DNA of 33,776 nt from a candidate division WOR-3 bacterium (GTDB lineage: Bacteria; Hydrothermota; Tepidihabitantia; SM23-42), in assembly GCA_037446995.1 (NCBI GenBank), contig JBBIHN010000001.1:1-33776 (forward strand), written 5' to 3'. Below the pieces are notes generated by a model, which made no database searches, was not told the origin of the DNA, and worked only from the letters and a program-made list of their open reading frames with translations. A program made the translations under genes and the position numbers. Positions 5,408 through 25,398 of this stretch are shown here, piece by piece. The first letter of the stretch is position 1. Each line of letters opens with the position of its first letter.

Positions 5408-6307
5408 GTGTTTCAGCTTGGTGTGAGTGCGGGTAAGTTTTACGATTGGTACCGGCGGTATGGGTATTCGAATCAGCGGAACCGGCAGGTGCCCAGGATC
5501 CATTGGCTTTTGTCCTGGGAGCGGGCGGCGATTGAAGACTATTATCGGCAACACGAGCATGAACGCGAGGGTTATCGCCGGTTGTGTTATCGGATGATTG
5601 ATGAGGATGTGGTGTATGCGAGTCCATCATCAGTGTATCGGGTATTGAAAGCGGCACATCTTCTGAGCCGATTCAAGCCGGGCAAAGAAAGCGCCCGCGG
5701 TGATGGTTATGATCAGCCGACCCGGCCGCATCAGCAGAGGCATATTGATATATCCTACGTCAACGTGCGAGGCAGTTTTCTTTTTCTTATTGCGATTATT
5801 GACGGTTATTCCCGCTATATTGTGGCCTATGATTTGCGGGCAAGCATGGAGGCGACGTATGTCGGGATCGTGTTGCAGCGGGCGCGCGAGCGGTTTCCCA
5901 ATGAGCATGCCCAGGTAATCTCGGATCATGGCCGTCAGTTCATCTCCAAAGAATTCAACAGTTACATCCGGAATATTGGGTTTAGCCATACCTTGATCAC
6001 GGTTGGATATCCTGAAAGCAACGGCAAAATAGAACGTTTTTTTGGGACCGCAAAAAGAGAATGCATTCGACGGAACAGTTTTCTTTCGATCCGCGATGCC
6101 CGAAAGATCATTGATCGGTTCATTGAGCACTATAACAATAAAAGGCTGCACAGTGCGATTGGCTATGTGGCACCATTGGATATATTATTGGGTCGTAGGG
6201 AAGAAATCTTAAAAGATCGTGATGAAAAACTGAGAAAAGCCCGTGAAGAAAGGATCAAATCTTATAATCAAAATTCCACCTTATTGCATGAGGCCAAAGT
6301 GTCATGA
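5408..6307 (+). CDS. DDE (rve, integrase-core) transposase, IS3/IS481-like; possibly frameshifted at its extreme 5' end
   Basis: 299-aa ORF. It starts with an HTH remnant (LGVSAGKFYDWYRRYG). A D-D-E triad is recognisable: HIDISYV ... VISDHGRQF ... PESNGKIERFF. The tail reads YNNKRLHSAIGYVAP. The track start is a GTG without a Shine-Dalgarno. A good GGAG (5381-5384) plus ATG (5391) lies in another frame and runs only 11 codons (MDEKRRCFSLV). Confidence 0.85.
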   Translation: MFQLGVSAGKFYDWYRRYGYSNQRNRQVPRIHWLLSWERAAIEDYYRQHEHEREGYRRLCYRMIDEDVVYASPSSVYRVLKAAHLLSRFKPGKESARGDGYDQPTRPHQQRHIDISYVNVRGSFLFLIAIIDGYSRYIVAYDLRASMEATYVGIVLQRARERFPNEHAQVISDHGRQFISKEFNSYIRNIGFSHTLITVGYPESNGKIERFFGTAKRECIRRNSFLSIRDARKIIDRFIEHYNNKRLHSAIGYVAPLDILLGRREEILKDRDEKLRKAREERIKSYNQNSTLLHEAKVS

Positions 6308-7076: not shown

Positions 7077-9481
7077 AAATAGGGATTGCGGCCGATATCC
7101 CAAAAGAGCGCATTTTTCAAAACGTTAGGAAACGCGATGGGTCACAGGTCGCTTTTGACCGGTCGAAGATATCGAACGCAATCTATCTGGCGGCAAAGGC
7201 GGTCGGCGGCGATGATCGAACTCTTGCCGAGAAACTCGCTGATGAGGTGGTTCTTTTTCTATATACCTTAAAGGGTGATCGGGTTCCCGAAGTCGAGGAG
7301 ATCCAGGATGCCGTGGAAAAGGTTCTGATCGAAAACGGTCATGCCCGTACTGCCAAAGGCTATATTCTCTACCGCAAGCAGCGCGAAATTCTTCGCCGGA
7401 AGCAGCTTCTGGAGAAAGAACCCGAAGAAAGGGATACAACCGACTATGCGCTGTTCGTGCGGACATCTGACGATGACTTCGTTTCCTGGGACCGTTCCCG
7501 TATCATCAAGGCGCTTCAGAACGAAACCGGCCTGGATTTGAACCGCGCCGAAAAAATCGCGGCGGAGACCGAGGAGACCATTTTGAACTCGAATGTTCAT
7601 CTTGTTTCATCGTCGCTGATACGGGAAATCGTCAATGTCAAATTGATCGAACACGGGTTGGAAAGCTCAAGGCTGCGTCATATCCGCCTGGGTATCCCCC
7701 TTTACGATGCCGAAAAAATAATACTTTATGCTAATCGCGAAAACGCCAACATACCGCATAATCCCGAGGCAACCAATATGACAATTGCCGAGACGGTCAA
7801 GAAACAATATATGTTGAGCGAGGTCTTCAGCCGCGAAGTCGCCGATGCCCATATCCGGGGCGACATACATCTGCATGATCTGGGTTTTGGCGACCGCCCC
7901 TATTGCTCCGGTCAATCGCTCGAATATGTGAAGAAATTCGGATTGAATCTGCCTAATGCATTATCAATCGCCCGGCCGGCAAAGCACGCCGATACAATGC
8001 TTGCTCATATGGTCAAATTTTCGGCGGCCCTGCAGGGGCATTTTGCCGGCGCGATCGGCTGGGACGCGGTCAATATCTTTTTTGCTCCTTTCCTGGTCGA
8101 TATGAACGACCGGGAAATCCATCAGCTCGCCCAGATGATGGTCTTTGAATATTCGCAGCAGTCGGTTGCCCGGGGCGGCCAGGCGATTTTTTCGGACCTG
8201 AACCTGTACTGGGAAATCCCCAAGCATTTCCGCAATGTTGATGCGATCGGCCCGGGCGGCGAATACACCGGCAAAAAATACCGCGACTATGCCGGCTACT
8301 CACAGAAATTCGCCTGGGCGCTCTTTGACGTCTACATGGACGGCGACGGCACGGGACGGCCTTTCTTCTTTCCGAAACCGCTGGTTCATATTACCGAAGA
8401 TTTTTTCCGAACTCCGGGTTGGGAGGACTTTCTTAATCACATCGCTGATGTCAGTTCAAAACGCGGCAATACCTACTATGTCTTCGACCGCGGAGAAACC
8501 GCAAAAATATCCGAATGCTGCCGGCTTTCGTTCAAACTCGACGAAAACGATCTGGCCGACGCCAATACACCATGGAAAATGCGCTATTCTGCCCTGCAGA
8601 ACGTAACCCTTAACCTTCCCCGGGCCACCTACGAGGCAGACCATGATGACGAAATCCTTTTCCGGAAGATCGATGAACTCCTCGAGTACGCGGTGAAAGC
8701 GCATATTCAGAAGAAAGCATTTATCGAAAGAATAATATCGCTTAAAGCCGATGGTCCACTCGCTCTGTTGACCATGGAACGGGACGGCGAACCATATTTG
8801 CGATTGCACCGAGCAACTTACCTGATTGGACTGCTGGGGCTGAATGAGCTGGTTCAATATCATACCGGAAAACAGATGCACGAGAGCGAATCAGCGATCC
8901 GATTTGGTTTACGGGTATTGGCTTACCTTTACCTGCGCATCAAAGAACTGTCCCGTAAGTATCATATGCATCTGGTCATGGAACAAACCCCGGCCGAATC
9001 CACCGCATACCGTTTTGCGCGGCTGGACCTCGAACACTATAATCAACAGACGTTACCGATAATCAAGGGCGATATCACAGCCAATTCCGCCTACTATACT
9101 AATTCCACTTATCTTAATGTCGGAATACCGCTTGACCCGATCGAACGGGTAAAAACCGAAGGCAAATTTCATGATATGATCGAAGCCGGCGCTCTGACGC
9201 ATGTCTGGCTTGGCGATGCCCAACCGCCCAAGGAATCGATAGCGAATTTCGTCGTAAAAACCTTCCGTCATACCAGGAATGCCCAGATCGCGTTTTCGCC
9301 AGAATTCACGACTTGCAACGGCTGTTTCCGCACGGGCCGCGGGATAAAGGATAAATGTGAATACTGCGGGAGTAGGGACATCGATCACATTACGCGGGTT
9401 ACCGGCTATTTCACGAAAGTCTCGGGATGGAACAAGGGTAAGAAGGCCGAGCTGAACGACCGGTATCGATCCCCGATGTAG
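7055..9481 (+). CDS. nrdD: Anaerobic ribonucleoside-triphosphate reductase (class III, NrdD) with an N-terminal ATP-cone plus a second degenerate ATP-cone
   Basis: 808 aa. ATP-cone 1 is VRKRDGSQVAFDRSKISNAI...YILYRKQR. A second cone-like segment is FVSWDRSRIIKALQNETGL. The C-terminus has a Cys cluster (CNGCFRTGRGIKDKCEYCGS) and a glycyl-radical loop (ITRVTGYFTKVSGWNKGK). It overlaps the nrdR stop by 22 nt. Confidence 0.95.
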   Translation: MEERTTVKIGIAADIPKERIFQNVRKRDGSQVAFDRSKISNAIYLAAKAVGGDDRTLAEKLADEVVLFLYTLKGDRVPEVEEIQDAVEKVLIENGHARTAKGYILYRKQREILRRKQLLEKEPEERDTTDYALFVRTSDDDFVSWDRSRIIKALQNETGLDLNRAEKIAAETEETILNSNVHLVSSSLIREIVNVKLIEHGLESSRLRHIRLGIPLYDAEKIILYANRENANIPHNPEATNMTIAETVKKQYMLSEVFSREVADAHIRGDIHLHDLGFGDRPYCSGQSLEYVKKFGLNLPNALSIARPAKHADTMLAHMVKFSAALQGHFAGAIGWDAVNIFFAPFLVDMNDREIHQLAQMMVFEYSQQSVARGGQAIFSDLNLYWEIPKHFRNVDAIGPGGEYTGKKYRDYAGYSQKFAWALFDVYMDGDGTGRPFFFPKPLVHITEDFFRTPGWEDFLNHIADVSSKRGNTYYVFDRGETAKISECCRLSFKLDENDLADANTPWKMRYSALQNVTLNLPRATYEADHDDEILFRKIDELLEYAVKAHIQKKAFIERIISLKADGPLALLTMERDGEPYLRLHRATYLIGLLGLNELVQYHTGKQMHESESAIRFGLRVLAYLYLRIKELSRKYHMHLVMEQTPAESTAYRFARLDLEHYNQQTLPIIKGDITANSAYYTNSTYLNVGIPLDPIERVKTEGKFHDMIEAGALTHVWLGDAQPPKESIANFVVKTFRHTRNAQIAFSPEFTTCNGCFRTGRGIKDKCEYCGSRDIDHITRVTGYFTKVSGWNKGKKAELNDRYRSPM

Positions 9482-9567
9482 AAAAGCGCTTTTTCGAAAC
9501 GCTTCGAAATAGAATCCTTCCAAGAATGTCGCTTTCTGTGAATAATCGATTGAATGAAACATCACAA

Positions 9568-9595
9568 TTGACTGCATTTTGAATTTTCGTATAAT
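9568..9595 (+). promoter_or_regulatory. Sigma-70-type promoter upstream of the basic micro-ORF
   Basis: TTGACT (9568-9573), a 16-nt spacer, then TATAAT (9590-9595). Confidence 0.45.
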
Positions 9596-9620
9596 TCAAC
9601 CAGAAAGGAGGTAACATTTT

Positions 9621-9716
9621 ATGCCCTGCGGAAGAAAGCGAAAGCTCAAGAAGATAAAGCGTCACAAATTGAAGAAACGCCGCAAAAGAGATCGCCATAA
9701 GAAGAAATTAAGATAG
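9621..9716 (+). CDS. 31-aa highly basic micro-protein, bS22-like (AURKAIP1/COX24-C-like) candidate small ribosomal protein
   Basis: It is not in the ORF track because it is shorter than 60 aa. The ATG at 9621 is preceded by AAAGGAGG (9604-9611). The translation is MPCGRKRKLKKIKRHKLKKRRKRDRHKKKLR, ending at TAG 9714-9716. From memory, the RKRK-x-KK-x-K-HK-x-KK pattern resembles mycobacterial bS22 (about 33 aa). A near-consensus promoter lies about 25 nt upstream. Confidence 0.55.
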   Translation: MPCGRKRKLKKIKRHKLKKRRKRDRHKKKLR

Positions 9717-10475
9717 TTTTCTCATAAGTACGCCGCGCTTCGTGGTTTTGAAAAAATCAATTATTTCGGCAATCTTCGCCTCATGCGCTTGCTCGCCGAG
9801 TTCAGCAAGCGTTTTTCTTAAGGGACGGACGGAGCTGAATATCCGACGATAAATCGTCTTCAAAGAGACGATCTCGGCGTCGGTCATACGATTTTTTTTC
9901 AACCCTTTCACATTTACGCCCACAATCCGGGCGCGATTGCCCGCCGCGAGCAGAAAAGGTGCAAGATCCTTGTTCAAATACGACTTTGCTCCAAGCATTG
10001 CCATCCGGCCGATACGGCAGAACTGGTGAATGCCGCAAAGTCCTCCGATATTCACGTAATCATCAATTATTACGTGCCCGCCAAGCTGAGAACCGCTGGC
10101 GATGATAACATCATTTCCGATGACTGCATTATGGGCGACATGAACATAGGTCATTATGTAATTGCGATCGCCGATAATGGTTTTCGCGTCGGTACCGGTC
10201 GCACACGAGATCGTCGCGTATTCTCGGATTATATTGTGATTGCCGATTACGCAGAATGATCTTTCCCCCCGATAATGATAATCTTGCGGTTCTATTCCGA
10301 TCTGGACGCCGCCACCAATCAAATTGTGCGATCCTATAATCGAACCGTTGCGGATGATTGTATTATGTCCGATCGTCGTACCCTTGCCGATTTTGACATC
10401 GGCTTCGATTATTGTGAACCGACCGATGCTAACTCCAACATCAATATCGGCTTGTTTGCTGATGCGGGAAAACAC
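9708..10475 (-). CDS. lpxA: Acyl-ACP--UDP-N-acetylglucosamine O-acyltransferase
   Basis: 255 aa. It has left-handed beta-helix hexapeptide repeats and a C-terminal helical domain (NVKGLKKNRMTDAEIVSLKTIYRRIF). It lies immediately downstream of fabZ, the conserved arrangement. Confidence 0.92.
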   Translation of the reverse strand: MFSRISKQADIDVGVSIGRFTIIEADVKIGKGTTIGHNTIIRNGSIIGSHNLIGGGVQIGIEPQDYHYRGERSFCVIGNHNIIREYATISCATGTDAKTIIGDRNYIMTYVHVAHNAVIGNDVIIASGSQLGGHVIIDDYVNIGGLCGIHQFCRIGRMAMLGAKSYLNKDLAPFLLAAGNRARIVGVNVKGLKKNRMTDAEIVSLKTIYRRIFSSVRPLRKTLAELGEQAHEAKIAEIIDFFKTTKRGVLMRKLS

Positions 10476-19912: not shown

Positions 19913-20078
19913 ATCTGGTATTGTATATCACTATGTACTGTATGTCAACAATTTCACTGTTTACTGATTACCGTCTTCTCCCTTAGCGTTACGCTCTACG
20001 TATTACGCGCTACGGTCTTTTTTCCCTTGACCGGCGTGTCATTCTGCCATATATCAAAAGTGTAGCTCTTCCCGATCC

Positions 20079-20531
20079 ATGAAACCGATAATTGACCTTT
20101 CGGTGCGCGATCTGGTCGAGTTCTGCCTGCGCAGCGGGAATCTGGATATGACAACCTTTGGAGTGATCAGCACTACTGATGGGATCAGGGCTCATCAACA
20201 AATACAATCCCAGCGATCTGATGCATATCAGAACGAGATCTTTATTGACCATGAGATCGAAAGAGAGAATTATGTCCTGCAGATCAACGGCCGAATGGAT
20301 GGTCTTCTTGTCGCCGATCAAGGCGTCACCATTGATGAGATCAAGACCACCAGACAGGACCTCACGCAAGTCGAGTTGTCTGAAGATCCAATACATTGGG
20401 GCCAGGCACAATGCTATGCATTTATGTACGCTCACAAAAACAGCCTGCAAATGATCAATGTGCAGCTCACATATTGCAATGTCGATGATGCCAGCACGAA
20501 TCCCGGATTGGGGTCAAATCTTGACATTTGA
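20079..20531 (+). pseudogene. PD-(D/E)XK (Cas4/RecB-like) nuclease gene, 3'-truncated by a repeat copy
   Basis: The N-terminus is SVRDLVEFCLRSGNLD, carrying a single Cys. The core motif is GRMDG...IDEIKT (D...ExK). QAQCYAFMY is a QxxxY motif. The last 7 codons and the stop lie inside the 24-bp repeat at 20510-20533. The C-terminal Cys cluster expected for Cas4-like proteins is absent. Confidence 0.55.
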
Positions 20532-20533
20532 CA
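20510..20533 (+). repeat. 24-bp repeat, copy A (22/24 match to copies B and C)
   Basis: Copy A is GGGGTCAAATCTTGACATTTGACA and copy B is GGGGTCAAATCTGGACATTGGACA. The two differences are both T for G. Confidence 0.8.
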
Positions 20534-20604
20534 TACAGCTTGGCATAATTGTTCAGGATCAGACCATCGCGACATAATAATCGATTTCTCGCTCGTCTCA
20601 TGAT

Positions 20605-22707
20605 TTATGGGCGTGGCATTAGCCGCGCCTTTGTCTCCGGCGTCACCGGAAAACCCAGTTGCTCGGCGCGGATAAGATCGTCCCGGGCCTTTTGATCTTC
20701 GCCGATCATATGCCGGGCCAGGGCGCGGTTAAAATAGGCATCGGCGTAATCGGGCCGGATCCGCAGGGCTCGATCATAGTCAGCTATCGCTTTTTCGTAC
20801 CGGGCGACGATCATATATAAATTGCCACGATTGTTCAGGGCTTCGGCAAAATCCGGTTTGAGCCTTATCGCGTTATCATAGTCGATCAGGGCGAGTCTAT
20901 TGTCGCCGATCATCCTGTAGGCCATGGCGCGGTTATAATAGGCCGTGTAAAAATAGGGATTGATCTCCAACGCCTGAGAATAGTCGGCGATCGCCCGGCC
21001 GAAGTCGCCGCGCACAAACCATATATCGCCCCGGTTGACATAAGTCTCAGGACAATAGGAATCAAACACCAGCGCGCGTTCATAGTCACTCAGCGCCAGT
21101 TCATGAAAGCCCAGCCGCGCATAAGCAAAACCGCGATCCAGATAGGCAATGTCTAATGATGCGTCCAGGCTTAAGGCATGATCCAGTTCCGCGATTGCCG
21201 CTTCGTAACGGCCCAGACGATTATAGGTCGCGCCCCTTCCCGCATAGGCGATCGCCATATCCATCTTTATGCTCAATGCGCGATCAAAATCCGCCAGTGC
21301 CCGTTCATAGTCCGCCAGTTTCTCATAGGCCATAGCGCGGTTGTAATAAAGCAATTCATATTCAGGATCGACCTCCATGGCGCTCTCATAATCCTGTATC
21401 GCGCGCGCGTACTGCCCCAGCAAACTGTAGACGCGACCCCGATTATTAAGCGCCAGCGAACTCTCGGGATATCGCCGCAAAACATAGTTCCAGAGTGTCA
21501 AACTATCTTTCCAAACGCGGCAAAGACCGCGGGATTGCATTGAAAAAATGGCAAGAACGATAACGACCGTCGCGGCAATCCCGATCTTCACTGCCCGCGC
21601 CCGGCCAATGAATCCGTTCCATAACCGGCGTCCGGCGTGAACGATCAGAAAGGCAATTCCGATCGACGGAATATAGGTGTATCGGTCAGCCGCCATGGCG
21701 TGGCCGGCAATGGGGATCATTTGGCTGACCGGCAAAGCGGTCACCAGATAGAAAAAAGTACCGAAAATCAACGCGCGGCGGTGGTGCATCGGTAACGCGA
21801 ATATCAAAGCCAAACCCGCGGCTAAGATCAGGGGTGCGAAATAGAAAGCGACCGGCATCGAATCTTCAAAACCGGCCGGATACGGGTAAAAAGGCGATAA
21901 CCCCAGAGGCACGACCGTTTTCGCGGCATACACGACAAGATTCCTGGTCCCGAGTATTAAATTACGCAGCAGATCAAATGCCGGCGTGTCGGTCTGCCGT
22001 ATCTGGGTGTGAAAATTTATCGCGACAAAAGGCAAGGCGAGTGCGACCATAATCAAGGCAAGCCGTAGGCTTGCGCGCCGAAGCCGGCCCTCGAGCAGAT
22101 ATTCGGTCAGTAACAGCACGCCGGGAAGCGTCAGCGCGATCGGTTTGGCGAGTATTGCCAGCAAATACAAAGCATTTACCGCGTAAGCAGCAAATCGCCG
22201 TTCCCGAAAACGAATAAAGACGGCCCAGGCGGCGAAGAAAAAAAGGCCGCAAAGCACGTCTTTGCGCTCGGTCACCCAGGCGACCGATTCAACGCGCATG
22301 GGATGCAGTCCGAAGAATAAGGCGATCACCACGGCCGCCCAGAAATCGCGCAGCAGAAGGCGCATCAACGCGAACAACAGAAGCACATTAATGATATGCA
22401 GCAGGACGTTAGCCAGGTGAAAGAAAACCGGATTCAAACCGAACAACCGGTTCTCGACGGAAAATGACAATATAGTCAGGGGCACGTATGGTCCGCTTTG
22501 GGGATTGGTGAAAATCCGCAGAATTGAGGCCGGGTTCAGATCGCGAATGCGCGGGTTGTTGGTGATCAATTCCGAATCGTCCCAATTCGTAAAATCGTTG
22601 GCCAGCGCCGGCATAAAGGCAAAAAACACGGCGAGAACGATCAAAATATTGACGACGATCGCGCGGTAGCACGGCTTCACGATTTCCATTATAACAGGCA
22701 CCGCCAT
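20605..22707 (-). CDS. Polytopic membrane GT-C-type (PMT/TMTC-like) glycosyltransferase-family protein with a C-terminal TPR array
   Basis: 700 aa. The N-terminal roughly 400 aa hold many hydrophobic helices and the motif FTNWDDSELITNNPRIR. The C-terminal roughly 290 aa are regular 34-aa TPRs (AIQDYESAMEVDPEYELLYYNRAMAY and similar). Confidence 0.8.
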   Translation of the reverse strand: MAVPVIMEIVKPCYRAIVVNILIVLAVFFAFMPALANDFTNWDDSELITNNPRIRDLNPASILRIFTNPQSGPYVPLTILSFSVENRLFGLNPVFFHLANVLLHIINVLLLFALMRLLLRDFWAAVVIALFFGLHPMRVESVAWVTERKDVLCGLFFFAAWAVFIRFRERRFAAYAVNALYLLAILAKPIALTLPGVLLLTEYLLEGRLRRASLRLALIMVALALPFVAINFHTQIRQTDTPAFDLLRNLILGTRNLVVYAAKTVVPLGLSPFYPYPAGFEDSMPVAFYFAPLILAAGLALIFALPMHHRRALIFGTFFYLVTALPVSQMIPIAGHAMAADRYTYIPSIGIAFLIVHAGRRLWNGFIGRARAVKIGIAATVVIVLAIFSMQSRGLCRVWKDSLTLWNYVLRRYPESSLALNNRGRVYSLLGQYARAIQDYESAMEVDPEYELLYYNRAMAYEKLADYERALADFDRALSIKMDMAIAYAGRGATYNRLGRYEAAIAELDHALSLDASLDIAYLDRGFAYARLGFHELALSDYERALVFDSYCPETYVNRGDIWFVRGDFGRAIADYSQALEINPYFYTAYYNRAMAYRMIGDNRLALIDYDNAIRLKPDFAEALNNRGNLYMIVARYEKAIADYDRALRIRPDYADAYFNRALARHMIGEDQKARDDLIRAEQLGFPVTPETKARLMPRP

Positions 22708-22724
22708 AAAGTCAACATGAACAT

Positions 22725-22748
22725 GGGGTCAAATCTGGACATTGGACA
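22725..22748 (+). repeat. 24-bp repeat, copy B (perfect inverted partner of copy C)
   Basis: GGGGTCAAATCTGGACATTGGACA. It covers the stop codon of the Y1 transposase-like gene. Confidence 0.9.
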
Positions 22749-23727
22749 AGCACGCCGTGACAGTCTTAACAATCTCAGTATATCGCTGTGATAGCCTTCT
22801 GTCTTTCTTGAGATGCCTCCATAGTCGGCTCCGTAATTTGCTTACAGCATAATAATCGACACCCAGATATTCACCTATCTTGTCTTGTTTCATCTCACAG
22901 TAGCGATATAGAATATCACTTAATATCCCGCGCACAATGCCATTTCCCCGGCGGATCCGAATGTCATCACGGTGAAGACCAAAAGCATCGCCTACACAAG
23001 CTACAACTATTTCAGGATCGACTTTGCTCGCTATCATCCTGCGATACTCGGGTTGCTCGCGTACCGAGCCTTTCTCCAGGAATCTTTTTCTAACAAGATC
23101 TACAAATGCGTCGTTTCCCAAGATGTTCTGATAATGAACTGCTTCAAATGGATTATCGAGATCGTGCTGCAACCCATCCAGAAGGAAATCTCTGTAGCCA
23201 CATCGATCACCTGCCAACCTCAATACTAAATCATAATGAACAAAATCAATTTTCAGTTTTTCTCGCAAATATCCGGGCAGACTGCTCCATTTGAAACGGT
23301 TGAGATATACCACCTTCCTATGGCACGGCAGGTCAGCAAACTCATTTCTACGCACGGGATTCAAATGCACATACCGCGACAGCTCAAGGAGATAGTTGTC
23401 AGCATCAACTAATATGGCTTTGTATCGCCCTTGATACAGATGGCCACATGTCTTATGATGGAAATTAAACCACCCTGTATAGCTGATGTTGAAACGCCGC
23501 ATGAATTCACTAAGATTCGCCTTTACCGTCTGCACACCCAGATGAAAATGATTGTCCATCAGAACGTAGAAGTGCAAAACAACACTGTAAATGCCTAAGG
23601 ACTCACGCAGCACTTTCAGAAACCAATGTCGATCATCATCATCCAAAAAAATTTTTTGACGTCTGTTGCCACGACAGAATACGTGATAGAACGCATCTGG
23701 GAATTGAATTCTCAATGGTCGTGCCAT
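22729..23727 (-). CDS. HUH/Y1 (IS200/RayT-like, PF01797-type) transposase-like protein with a C-terminal DnaA-C-like HTH domain
   Basis: MARPLRIQFPDAFYHVFCRGNRRQKIF ... LMDNHFHLGV (HUH motif) ... GHLYQGRYKAILV (catalytic Tyr motif). The C-terminus IVRGILSDILYRYCEMKQDKIGEYLGVDYYAVSKLRSRL resembles the DnaA domain IV HTH. The start is probably the ATG at 23727; the track's TTG at 23748 lies inside the repeat. Confidence 0.85.
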   Translation of the reverse strand: MARPLRIQFPDAFYHVFCRGNRRQKIFLDDDDRHWFLKVLRESLGIYSVVLHFYVLMDNHFHLGVQTVKANLSEFMRRFNISYTGWFNFHHKTCGHLYQGRYKAILVDADNYLLELSRYVHLNPVRRNEFADLPCHRKVVYLNRFKWSSLPGYLREKLKIDFVHYDLVLRLAGDRCGYRDFLLDGLQHDLDNPFEAVHYQNILGNDAFVDLVRKRFLEKGSVREQPEYRRMIASKVDPEIVVACVGDAFGLHRDDIRIRRGNGIVRGILSDILYRYCEMKQDKIGEYLGVDYYAVSKLRSRLWRHLKKDRRLSQRYTEIVKTVTACLSNVQI

Positions 23728-23741
23728 ATAAATTTCATAAA

Positions 23742-23765
23742 TGTCCAATGTCCAGATTTGACCCC
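23742..23765 (-). repeat. 24-bp repeat, copy C (inverted)
   Basis: TGTCCAATGTCCAGATTTGACCCC is the exact reverse complement of copy B. It ends 1 nt before the comM stop codon. Confidence 0.9.
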
Positions 23766-23766
23766 A

Positions 23767-25308
23767 TCACAGGCGTTGCCAGATATTCTTGTCGAGCGAG
23801 CGGTACTGTATCGCCTCGGCGACATGCTGGACCCGGATATTTTCCAGTCCTTCCAGATCGGCGATCGTGCGGCTCACCTTGAGCACTTTATCATAGGCCC
23901 GCGCCGACAGGCCGAAGCGCTCGATCGCGGTCTTAAGCAGGGATTGCGACCCTTCATCGATAAGGCAGTGTTTCCTTATATCCCTGGAACCAAGATGGGC
24001 ATTGCAGTATATTCGTTTTTTTCCATCAGCATAACGTTTGAGCTGAGTATCGCGTGCTCGATTGACGCGCTCGCGAATCGCGGTTGACAGCTCGCTCGAC
24101 TGCGTTGATTTCAATTCATCATATTTCAATGATGGTACCTCAATATGAATATCGATGCGGTCGAGCAATGGCCCGGATATCTTGGCGTGATATCTTTGAA
24201 TCGCTGTGGGCGTGCACCGGCATTCATGATACGGATCAGTGAAATACCCGCACGGGCACGGGTTAAGCGCCGCGGCGAGCATAAAACGTGCCGGATAGGT
24301 AAGCGTCACTTTTGCCCGGCCGATCGTGACAAAACCGTCCTCAAGCGGCTGTCGCAATACCTCGATCACGTTCTTATGGAACTCGGGTAATTCATCAAGA
24401 AAGAGAACGCCGTTATGGGCAAGCGATACCTCGCCCGGTCTGGGCACATGACCGCCGCCGATTATACCGGCATCAGATATCGTATGATGGGGCGCCCTAA
24501 AGGGACGGGTGCCGAGGATTGAATTATTGCCCAGAATGCCGGCAACCGAATGGATCTTGGTCGTTTCCAGGGATTCATCGAGACTGAGGTTCGGCAATAT
24601 CGTAACCAGACGCCGCGCCAGCATGGTCTTGCCCGTTCCGGGCGGGCCGATCATCAGGATGTTATGACCGCCCGCGGCCGCGATCTCGAGCGCGCGTTTG
24701 GCGTGATGCTGTCCCTTGACTTCGGTGAAATCAACCAGATAATGGGATGCCGTTGCGAAGATCGCGTCACGGTCGATCACGGTCGGCTGAATATCGCTCT
24801 CCCCGTTCAAAAACGCCACGACTTCGATCAAATTATCAAACCCATAAACATCGATCCCGTCTACGATCGCGGCTTCACACGCATTGACCCGCGGTAACAT
24901 AACCCCACTCAATCCATTACTCTTGGCCGCGATCGCGATCGATATCGCTCCCTTGATCGGCCGCAGCGAACCGTCCAATGACAATTCGCCAAGAAGCGCA
25001 AACCGACTCATCTGGGCGCTGCGCACGCTTCCGGACGCGGCCAGTATCCCGATCGCGATCGGCAGATCAAAACTCGAGCCTTCCTTTTTTATGTCGGCGG
25101 GCGCCAGGTTAACCGTGATCTTATGCGACGGAAAATGAAATCCGGCGTTCTTGATCGCCGCGTAAACCCGGTCCTTTGATTCCTTAACCGCGTTGTCCGG
25201 AAGTCCGACCGTGGTAAACGCCGGCAAACCGCCGGCAAGATCCACTTCAACATCGACCAGATAGCCTTCGATACCGAAAGTGGCGCAGGATAGTATTCTT
25301 GCGAGCAT
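23767..25308 (-). CDS. comM: YifB/ComM family Mg-chelatase-like AAA+ ATPase
   Basis: MLARILSCATFGIEGYLVDVEVDL is the typical N-terminus. Walker A is GPPGTGKTM and Walker B is VLFLDELPEF. The C-terminal domain reads SARAYDKVLKVSRTIADLEG. The ATG at 25308 has GGAGG 9 nt upstream; the track's extension to 25335 is unlikely. Confidence 0.93.
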   Translation of the reverse strand: MLARILSCATFGIEGYLVDVEVDLAGGLPAFTTVGLPDNAVKESKDRVYAAIKNAGFHFPSHKITVNLAPADIKKEGSSFDLPIAIGILAASGSVRSAQMSRFALLGELSLDGSLRPIKGAISIAIAAKSNGLSGVMLPRVNACEAAIVDGIDVYGFDNLIEVVAFLNGESDIQPTVIDRDAIFATASHYLVDFTEVKGQHHAKRALEIAAAGGHNILMIGPPGTGKTMLARRLVTILPNLSLDESLETTKIHSVAGILGNNSILGTRPFRAPHHTISDAGIIGGGHVPRPGEVSLAHNGVLFLDELPEFHKNVIEVLRQPLEDGFVTIGRAKVTLTYPARFMLAAALNPCPCGYFTDPYHECRCTPTAIQRYHAKISGPLLDRIDIHIEVPSLKYDELKSTQSSELSTAIRERVNRARDTQLKRYADGKKRIYCNAHLGSRDIRKHCLIDEGSQSLLKTAIERFGLSARAYDKVLKVSRTIADLEGLENIRVQHVAEAIQYRSLDKNIWQRL

Positions 25309-25398
25309 TGTACAAACCTCCTTCGGATCATGCACTGACCCCGAATGATTATATCGATTATATCCGGCGGGTCAAGGGCATTTGTATCATCGCGAGTA

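Follow-up and report, generated by a model that had tools for sequence, protein, structure and literature searches.

The element and its encoded protein

The window analysed here is a stretch of 33,776 nucleotides (nt) from the genome of a candidate division WOR-3 bacterium (GenBank assembly GCA_037446995.1, contig JBBIHN010000001.1, positions 1 to 33,776), and it contains a unit of 1043 bp (22724..23766, minus strand) that reads T-GGGG ... CCCC-A from end to end and that is very likely a TIRtron, that is, a RAYT-like gene enclosed by terminal inverted repeats. A single intact open reading frame (ORF) lies between the repeats (22729..23727, minus strand; 332 aa), and we refer to its product as the TIRYT protein. 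The 24-mer GGGGTCAAATCTGGACATTGGACA is found with 0 mismatches at 22725-22748 on the plus strand and at 23742-23765 on the minus strand, and again with 2 mismatches (22/24) at 20510-20533 on the plus strand, whereas shuffled window sequence produced matches in 0 of 100 shuffles. An initial annotation made from the letters alone had described this third copy and the 24-bp inverted repeats around a single gene; both are real, but the perfect inverted repeat measures 26 bp (ATGGGGTCAAATCTGGACATTGGACA, starting with ATGGGG, at 22723-22748 and 23742-23767).

The two outer repeats are closely fitted to the gene, and the earlier description of repeats lying over the stop codon and close to the ATG proved accurate. 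Copy B, at the 3′ end of the gene (22723..22748, plus strand), encodes the final six residues, LSNVQI, and the stop codon. Copy C, at the 5′ end (23742..23767, minus strand), reads AT-GGGGTCAAATCT-GGACA-TT-GGACA on the gene strand, and the ATG begins 14 nt past its end; on its other side, it sits 1 nt beyond the stop codon of comM. A Logan contig that was assembled independently spans both junctions with the element between them, and the G+C content is about 0.44 in the element compared with about 0.53 in its flanks.

The protein is an HUH/Y1 enzyme, as indicated by a match to Pfam PF01797 (Y1_Tnp) over residues 13-121 (E 8.2e-11), by the HUH motif H60-F61-H62, and by the tyrosine motif GHLYQGRY. 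In an alignment of 45 homologues, H60-F61-H62, G95, and Q99-G100-R101 show no variation and Y102 is conserved in at least 90%, and by analogy, we consider Y102 to be the likely catalytic residue. An AlphaFold2 model of the protein has a predicted local distance difference test (pLDDT) score of 77, and its N-terminal domain, corresponding to the nuclease core (aa 1-130; 23338..23727, minus strand), was matched by Foldseek to RayT (4er8_A, E 1.2e-4, TM 0.65, root-mean-square deviation (rmsd) 2.5), with ISDra2 TnpA and IS608 TnpA matched too. The C-terminal third (aa 233-327; 22747..23031, minus strand) resembles the helix-turn-helix of DnaA domain IV, as the initial annotation had suggested. Its predicted structure matches the DNA-binding domain of Mycobacterium tuberculosis DnaA (3pvp_A) with a TM of 0.86 and an rmsd of 1.9 over 96 columns, and a profile built from the 45 homologues matches the DnaA DNA-binding domains 3pvp, 8btg, and 1j1v at positions 235-327 (E 3e-3 to 9e-3), with the recognition helix running from D291-Y-Y-A-V-S-K297. 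Pfam searches returned no match for the C-terminal piece alone and nothing useful for the middle piece alone, and the Y1/HUH and DnaA-like domains are the only ones detected in the protein.

Anatomy of the repeat across relatives

The ends of 109 homologous units were compiled, the sources being metagenomes, relatives of the source genome, and its phylum. Among these, the 69 closest units (44-57% protein identity) are 1031-1081 bp long, and both of their ends carry T-GGGGTCAAATCT and two tandem pentamers 7 nt apart, although a few of the tips deviate by one or two bases. The T is present before GGGG at 124 of 137 ends, and that T is itself preceded by A at 70 of the 137. The tip is nearly invariant, while the pentamers take more than 20 forms, and the two pentamers of an end often agree in their first two bases; for example, the pair GGACA/GGACA of the window is replaced by TGACA/TGACA, TCACA/TCACA, CAACA/CAACA, CTACA/CTACA, TGAAT/TGAAT, or TTGCA/TTGCA in other units. 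More distant members (32-43% identity) are built in the same way and differ in their tips, for example GGGGTCAGGTCT and GGTGTCAGGTCT. Judged from these ends, an invariant tip forms one module and a two-base barcode, present as a pair, the other, an anatomy that appears to be new relative to the published descriptions. In some distant members from metagenomes (loci L112 and L135), each gene end is a complete inverted doublet forming a hairpin of about 65 nt and not a single repeat.

Because some repeats contain the hexamer TTGACA, we considered whether they could be promoters. This reading was rejected given that the hexamer is not kept in other subfamilies, where TCACA, CAACA, TGAAT, and further forms occur, and that, in the window, the only -10-like hexamers suitably spaced from the first hexamer overlap the ATG. 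A search of the Rfam collection gave no match at E values up to 1.

Within the 1.87-Mb assembly (168 contigs), the 24-mer has only three copies at up to 3 mismatches, all within 3.3 kb. The earlier suggestion of a repeat family of its own is not supported as far as dispersal in the source genome is concerned. A separate scan of the same contigs for tip-like sequences found one copy with another barcode on each of contigs C4 and C90, and three copies of the tip variant GGGGTCAGCCC on contigs C19, C31, and C154. A third gene-and-repeat set was noticed on the latter three contigs (C154:72-1023, C19:19538-19561, and C31:15382-15405), with a protein that is 32% identical and three copies of a repeat in which the tip GGGGTCAGCCCT is followed by CCACT-TT-CCACA. 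Contig C4 (5800-6960; locus L208) holds a paralogue that is 49% identical and that has kept its right repeat, of the CAACA type, and lacks the left one, in whose place there is a TTGACA-17-TATAAT promoter; the otherwise invariant Gln99 is Glu in this protein, and the copy may be immobilised or decaying.

Covariation between the barcode and the recognition helix

If repeat positions are counted with the flanking T as 1, the barcode bases are those at positions 14, 15, 21, and 22. We computed a background-corrected mutual-information score (MIp) between repeat positions and residues over 65 intact proteins. The top pairs that are free of coding overlap connect these four positions to Y293, S296, and K297; K297 is paired with position 15, S296 with position 21, and Y293 with position 22. 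The score also recovered residues 328-331, which are encoded by the right repeat and thus act as a built-in positive control. The individual associations come close to one-to-one: G is found at position 22 in all 19 cases of Lys297 and in all 24 of Ser293, and C at position 14 in all 11 of Gly293, while Met293 accompanies A (6/6) and Met297 accompanies C (7/9). A tree restricted to residues 1-232 gave 11 inferred changes at position 22, and for 9 of them, residue 293 changes on the same branch (hypergeometric p = 7e-8). Among 325 residues ranked on this tree, 293 and 297 came first and second for positions 14 and 22, and residue 293 was also first for position 21.

In the profile alignment, D291-Y-Y-A-V-S-K297 corresponds to D433-H434-T435-T436-V437-L438-H439 of DnaA (Escherichia coli numbering), so that the loop and helix share the pattern D-x-x-x-V-x-x. 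Residues D433, H434, T435, and H439 of DnaA reportedly make major-groove base contacts, a result attributed to Fujikawa and colleagues in 2003, and residue 293 would then correspond to T435 and residue 297 to H439. Translation of the right repeat means that the barcode of a homologue can also be read from its C-terminal peptide. In the 120 homologues listed, these peptides follow the type of their own repeat and show the same pairing with the helix motif. For instance, T-N-M is found with ...CEL* or ...CDL* in 10 of 11 listed homologues (the eleventh has CGL), G-H-Q with LCSK* in 6 of 6, T-S-K with LSSFEI* in 5 of 5, and G-Y-Q with NVEC* or LNVEI* in 11 of 13. On the strength of these comparisons, we lean slightly towards the new proposal that the DnaA-like helix-turn-helix reads the barcode.

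Mobility and distribution

The same 24-mer, with G or T allowed at the two variable positions, is present exactly in 15 species-representative genomes, where it has sharp boundaries and unrelated flanks. The labels of these genomes include Doudnabacteria, Planctomycetia, WOR-3, Elusimicrobiota, Nitrospirae, Flavobacteriales, and Desulfuromonadales. Three arrangements were seen in them: copies that enclose a homologous gene as an inverted pair with a distance of 1.0-1.06 kb, inverted doublets with a distance of 55-175 bp, and solo copies. Similarity between units of different genomes is confined to the stretch from repeat to repeat; for example, two units from different genera (L037 and L038) share 91% identity over 1063 nt and have unrelated flanks. 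At the site that another unit (L186) occupies, three sister genomes are without any GGGG...CCCC, which indicates that the insert is the whole stretch from repeat to repeat. No direct repeats that would indicate a target-site duplication were seen flanking the units and doublets inspected, which is consistent with HUH chemistry and not with DDE chemistry.

Relatives also contain short derivatives made of two repeats. These doublets are 79-220 bp long and match in tip and barcode, and one small genome has near-identical 79-bp doublets at two separate sites, with 31-nt spacers that are almost the same. Where a full-length gene is resident, the doublets carry its tip variant and its barcode: in genome G025, a single gene is accompanied by four doublets, all of them GGGGTCAGATCT-CGAAACTTGACA like the gene, and in genome G016, a single gene is accompanied by three, with TCACAATTCACA throughout. 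Across the family of the source genome, tip copies number 1-107 per genome, compared with 0-6 for a reversed-pattern control. Of 272 genomes from the phylum, 33 contain the close subfamily, mainly within the family of the source genome and with at most 6 copies per genome, and several of its copies have in-frame stops. In the two genomes that were tabulated for this purpose (G030 and G031), no left-end barcode is common to two paralogues. As a class, these proteins are numerous: among 8,000 candidates scored in one search, more than 7,500 were homologues at E 1e-3, and they are spread over genomes labelled as many phyla, while the plasmid collection held distant relatives only (at most 38% identity).

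Two sites deserve mention. At one orthologous site in the genus g3 (L210, which is G162:C152, together with L211-L215, L182, and L201), the insert differs by species: there is a full unit in G161 and G163, a short derivative of 209-221 bp with ends GGGGTCAAATCTTGATAGGCTGA in G027 and G032, other inserts of 238 and 279 bp in G030 and G160, a 19-nt mini-palindrome, GGGGTCAA-ATC-TTGACCCC, in G162, and only GAGGTCAA in G017. Such a pattern could reflect repeated occupation, decay, or a footprint. The other is the 3′ end of comM (23767-25335 in the window, minus strand), which is a recurrent site. In genome G023, a TIRtron of a distant subfamily lies directly downstream of comM (L025 492-1483; 992 bp with a 300-aa gene), with the tip GGGACGGTGC and TTGACA-TT-TTGACA, and in genome G017, comM is followed at a distance of about 90 nt by a distant Y1 homologue.

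A proposed mechanism and its alternatives

The best explanation for these observations is, in our view, probably a TIRtron, for which we propose a mechanism that involves the helix-turn-helix and the tip. The unit consists of one TIRYT gene between terminal inverted repeats, with the protein combining an HUH-tyrosine single-strand nuclease core, a middle domain, and a DnaA-like tail. As the covariation suggests, the helix-turn-helix would bind the inner half of the repeat, that is, two NNACA pentamers 7 nt apart, with residues 293 and 297 of the recognition helix reading the variable NN barcode. The HUH/Tyr core would be set on the tip T-GGGGTCAAATCT and nick there, a step to which the invariance of the tip and its sharp boundary point; that the nick falls exactly at the T|GGGG boundary is a tentative suggestion that we would not put at even odds. 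The whole unit moves from repeat to repeat without target-site duplication, as the sequences described above show. Doublets of 79-220 bp that share the tip variant and barcode of a resident gene, which are seen in relatives and not in the source genome itself, are probably mobilised in trans, similarly to the mobilisation of REPINs by RAYTs. Finally, differences in barcode, which are apparent in the sequences, would let several gene-and-repeat sets coexist without cross-reaction. Taken as a general property of TIRYTs, recognition of the end in two parts, with the HUH core on a universal tip and the helix-turn-helix on a two-base barcode through residues 293 and 297, is a possibility that falls just short of an even chance. 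The same applies jointly to the code that the covariation would imply, in which Lys or Arg goes with G, Met with C, Gly293 with C, and Met293 with A.

Several points weigh against this proposal, some of them concerning recognition and others mobility. Shared ancestry can inflate covariation, and the covariation could also be indirect, as the C-terminal tail encoded by the repeat might pack on the helix. In the tree test, position 15 did not show a significant association with residue 297 (p = 0.07), a 7-bp spacing is unusual for two helix-turn-helix sites, and no experimental work on TIRYTs was found in the literature. One could imagine that recognition depends purely on single-strand hairpins, as in REP/RayT and IS200/IS605 systems, and that the helix-turn-helix serves another role, such as targeting to the replication fork. 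The Y1 enzymes characterised so far all act on single-stranded DNA, the commonest variant (TGACA/TGACA) could form a 7-bp stem (GTCAAAT / ATTTGAC), doublets would fold as long REPIN-like hairpins, and a 19-nt mini-palindrome occupies the g3 site in G162. Nevertheless, the stem is available only in the TGACA/TGACA variant and is broken in copies B and C, and across relatives, at least 20 forms of the inner arm occur without compensating changes in the outer one, which is invariant, for which reason we rejected the hairpin reading of the 24-mer itself. In addition, the barcode positions change as direct repeats and not as complements, and they do so together with the helix residues that align with the base-contacting residues of DnaA. 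Hence, recognition by hairpins alone seems unlikely to us.

The points that concern mobility are of a different kind. Some units are inherited in place by sister species and each type is mostly present in single copy, features that are more like a resident RAYT than an active insertion sequence, and the source genome has only three copies of the repeat. Logan contigs, at a depth of about 5x, gave no informative joints for excision or circle forms, and a search for joined flanks across the genus g3 yielded no clean empty site, the best candidates being 10-25% diverged or holding other inserts, with one site occupied repeatedly. It could be proposed that the gene is a domesticated and immobile resident, either a RAYT-like single copy that maintains or regulates its own repeats or a regulator that uses the repeats as operators. 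The genomes tabulated have one full-length gene per barcode type, some copies are at orthologous sites in sister species (L182/L201 and L040/L166), and the C4 paralogue with a promoter in place of its left repeat fits this idea as well, as does the low copy number in the source genome. However, full units with 91% nucleotide identity occupy non-orthologous sites in different genera, the distribution in the phylum is patchy (33 of 272 genomes), many paralogues have in-frame stops, a form of decay that is typical of selfish elements, and the G+C content of the element is below that of its surroundings. We therefore rate the chances of domestication as low, much like those of recognition by hairpins alone. 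The behaviour of the TIRtron is between that of an insertion sequence and that of a RAYT/REPIN system, and the copy in the source genome is lone and intact, with nothing to indicate recent activity.

Relation to known systems

The terms TIRtron, for the gene unit, and TIRYT, for the protein, were introduced for RAYT-like genes with terminal inverted repeats (Di Nocera, De Gregorio, and Rocco 2013, BMC Genomics 14:522, PMC3733652). That study gave GGGGWSAS as the end motif and found some of the repeats also as singles and dimers in moderate numbers. The tip in the window, GGGGTCAA, agrees with this motif at 7 of 8 positions, and subfamilies with GGGGTCAG agree at 8 of 8. The element shares with TIRtrons a RAYT-like HUH/Tyr gene between terminal inverted repeats without REP hairpins, and nothing essential differs, this copy being one from a candidate-division WOR-3 genome; in the source genome, the repeat is found elsewhere as one extra copy, of another barcode, while in relatives, tip copies number 1-107 and include doublets whose barcodes match. 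Quentin, Siguier, Chandler, and Fichant (2018, PMC6006769) later described a subclass 2.1 of TnpA_Y1 (TnpA_REP) proteins with a Bac_DnaA_C/HTH-like C-terminal extension and placed 20 of 26 known TIRYTs in it. From its Y1 core and DnaA-like tail, the protein studied here probably belongs to the same subclass. Quentin et al. doubted that the tail recognises the repeat, as the GGGG tip is unlike a DnaA box, and suggested targeting to the replication fork instead (PMC6006769); the covariation presented here differs from that view in pointing the helix-turn-helix at the inner pentamers and not at the tip. The element is an ordinary TIRtron, whose arrangement and DnaA-like tail have already been described (PMC3733652, PMC6006769), although the TIRtron paper (PMC3733652) contains neither the two-module anatomy of the ends nor a link to residues of the helix-turn-helix.

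The initial annotation had called the arrangement REPtron-like, and this description is apt: the gene is mostly present once per type, inverted copies of the repeat flank it, and the repeat also occurs alone and in doublets. As in the REPtrons of E. coli and Pseudomonas, in which RayT is associated with REP, REPIN, or BIME sequences, a single-copy Y1 gene lies between inverted copies of its own repeat, doublets are likely non-autonomous partners, and a conserved 4-nt tag marks the outer end (GTAG in REPtrons, GGGG here). In contrast to REPtrons, the gene encodes a protein of twice the length with a DnaA-like tail, the repeats do not form conserved palindromes and number 1-107 copies instead of hundreds, and the whole unit is found at non-orthologous sites. 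A strict assignment to RayT/REPtrons, which would involve an equivalog match, palindromic REPs with GTAG, and high copy number, was rejected: the NCBIfam RayT model NF047646 scored 45.8 bits, under its cut-off of 80, no palindrome is conserved, and there are three copies.

Members of the IS200/IS605 family, such as IS608 and ISDra2, share the HUH/Y1 fold and the absence of target-site duplication. These elements have subterminal hairpins, no terminal inverted repeats, and a TnpA of about 130-150 aa with no helix-turn-helix, and membership was discarded in view of the 332-aa protein with extra domains and the true inverted repeats at the ends. A classical DDE insertion sequence was likewise discarded, given that only Y1/HUH and DnaA-like domains were detected and that no direct repeats were seen at the units and doublets inspected. 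With regard to the tail, DnaA domain IV bound to the DnaA box (1J1V, 3PVP) has the same fold, and the difference lies in the target, which is here unrelated to TTATCCACA and consists of two short direct repeats 7 bp apart.

The solo repeat and the neighbouring genes

The third repeat, copy A (20510..20533, plus strand), differs from copies B and C at exactly two positions, both in the barcode (TTGACA/TTGACA instead of TGGACA/TGGACA). Its barcode, TGACA-TT-TGACA, is that of another repeat subfamily, so that it is not a diverged copy of B or C, and the same variant is found in metagenome-assembled genomes labelled as many phyla. Copy A supplies the last 7 codons and the stop of a stump of 150 aa that has a PD-(D/E)XK domain (20079..20531, plus strand; Pfam PDDEXK_1). 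Homologues of this nuclease have open frames of 779-817 aa, suggesting a full gene of about 800 aa, and in a genome of the same genus (G015, locus L061), an 800-aa PD-(D/E)XK-domain frame is followed, in convergent orientation, by an orthologue of the TPR gene next to the element (73% identity), with no element. Window positions 20077-20488 align with 5457-5868 of that locus, and 20606-22693 with 8139-10229, so that, compared with G015, 2.27 kb of the nuclease gene has been replaced by 117 nt containing copy A. Copy A is thus a solo end, a relic of another subfamily, at the junction of a 2.27-kb deletion, which explains how the nuclease gene was cut from 800 to 150 aa. The synteny with G015 stops at 22693, about 30 nt before copy B, and the element therefore also lies at a break in gene order.

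This comparison also bears on the idea, put forward in the initial annotation, that the segment from A to C is a composite or rearranged unit, with A and C as the ends of a 3.26-kb compound element that brought in the TPR gene. Copies A and C are indeed inverted and enclose the TPR gene and the Y1 gene, but the nuclease and TPR genes are already neighbours in G015, in the same order and orientation and without the element, from which it follows that the TPR gene is in its ancestral place and was not carried in. Moreover, the barcode of A differs from that of C, and the longest of about 70 units examined is 1081 bp, so that we regard a compound element as highly improbable. Finally, local duplication (which the initial annotation had raised for the three copies), chance, or a DDE insertion sequence with terminal inverted repeats could be suspected from the fact that the source genome has only three copies within 3.3 kb, but the occurrence of the same 24-mer in 15 unrelated genomes, its absence from shuffled sequence, the domains of the protein, and the lack of target-site duplication at the ends inspected make these explanations practically negligible.

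Some features of the neighbourhood are recorded here for completeness. Pfam glycosyltransferase families gave no match to the TPR gene, and the GT-C label that the initial annotation gave it is putative. A promoter-like site (TTGACT-16-TATAAT, 11/12; 22688-22715, minus strand) lies over its annotated ATG (22707), and its true start may be a downstream Met (MEIVKP...). A second sigma-70-like site (11/12; 20521-20549, plus strand) consists of the first TTGACA of the solo repeat, 17 nt, and TG-CATAAT, and points into the 3′ end of the TPR gene in antisense. In G015, a tip-like GGGGTCAGGTCTTGCAATCATACA is found at L061 13829 (contig C24), after a 1167-aa ORF upstream of the TPR gene and near the end of the synteny with the window.

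Implications for TIRtron biology

What this analysis adds to the published descriptions of TIRtrons is limited to the two-module anatomy of the ends and to the prediction for the helix-turn-helix that is based on covariation. Together, these amount to a testable prediction on a question raised by Quentin et al. (2018), namely the function of the tail, and the same prediction addresses how several paralogues can coexist without cross-talk. If it is true, TIRYTs would be natural, mutually orthogonal pairs of nuclease and repeat that share one genome, and they would also be the first Y1 HUH transposases to be addressed by a reader of double-stranded DNA whose specificity could be re-coded.

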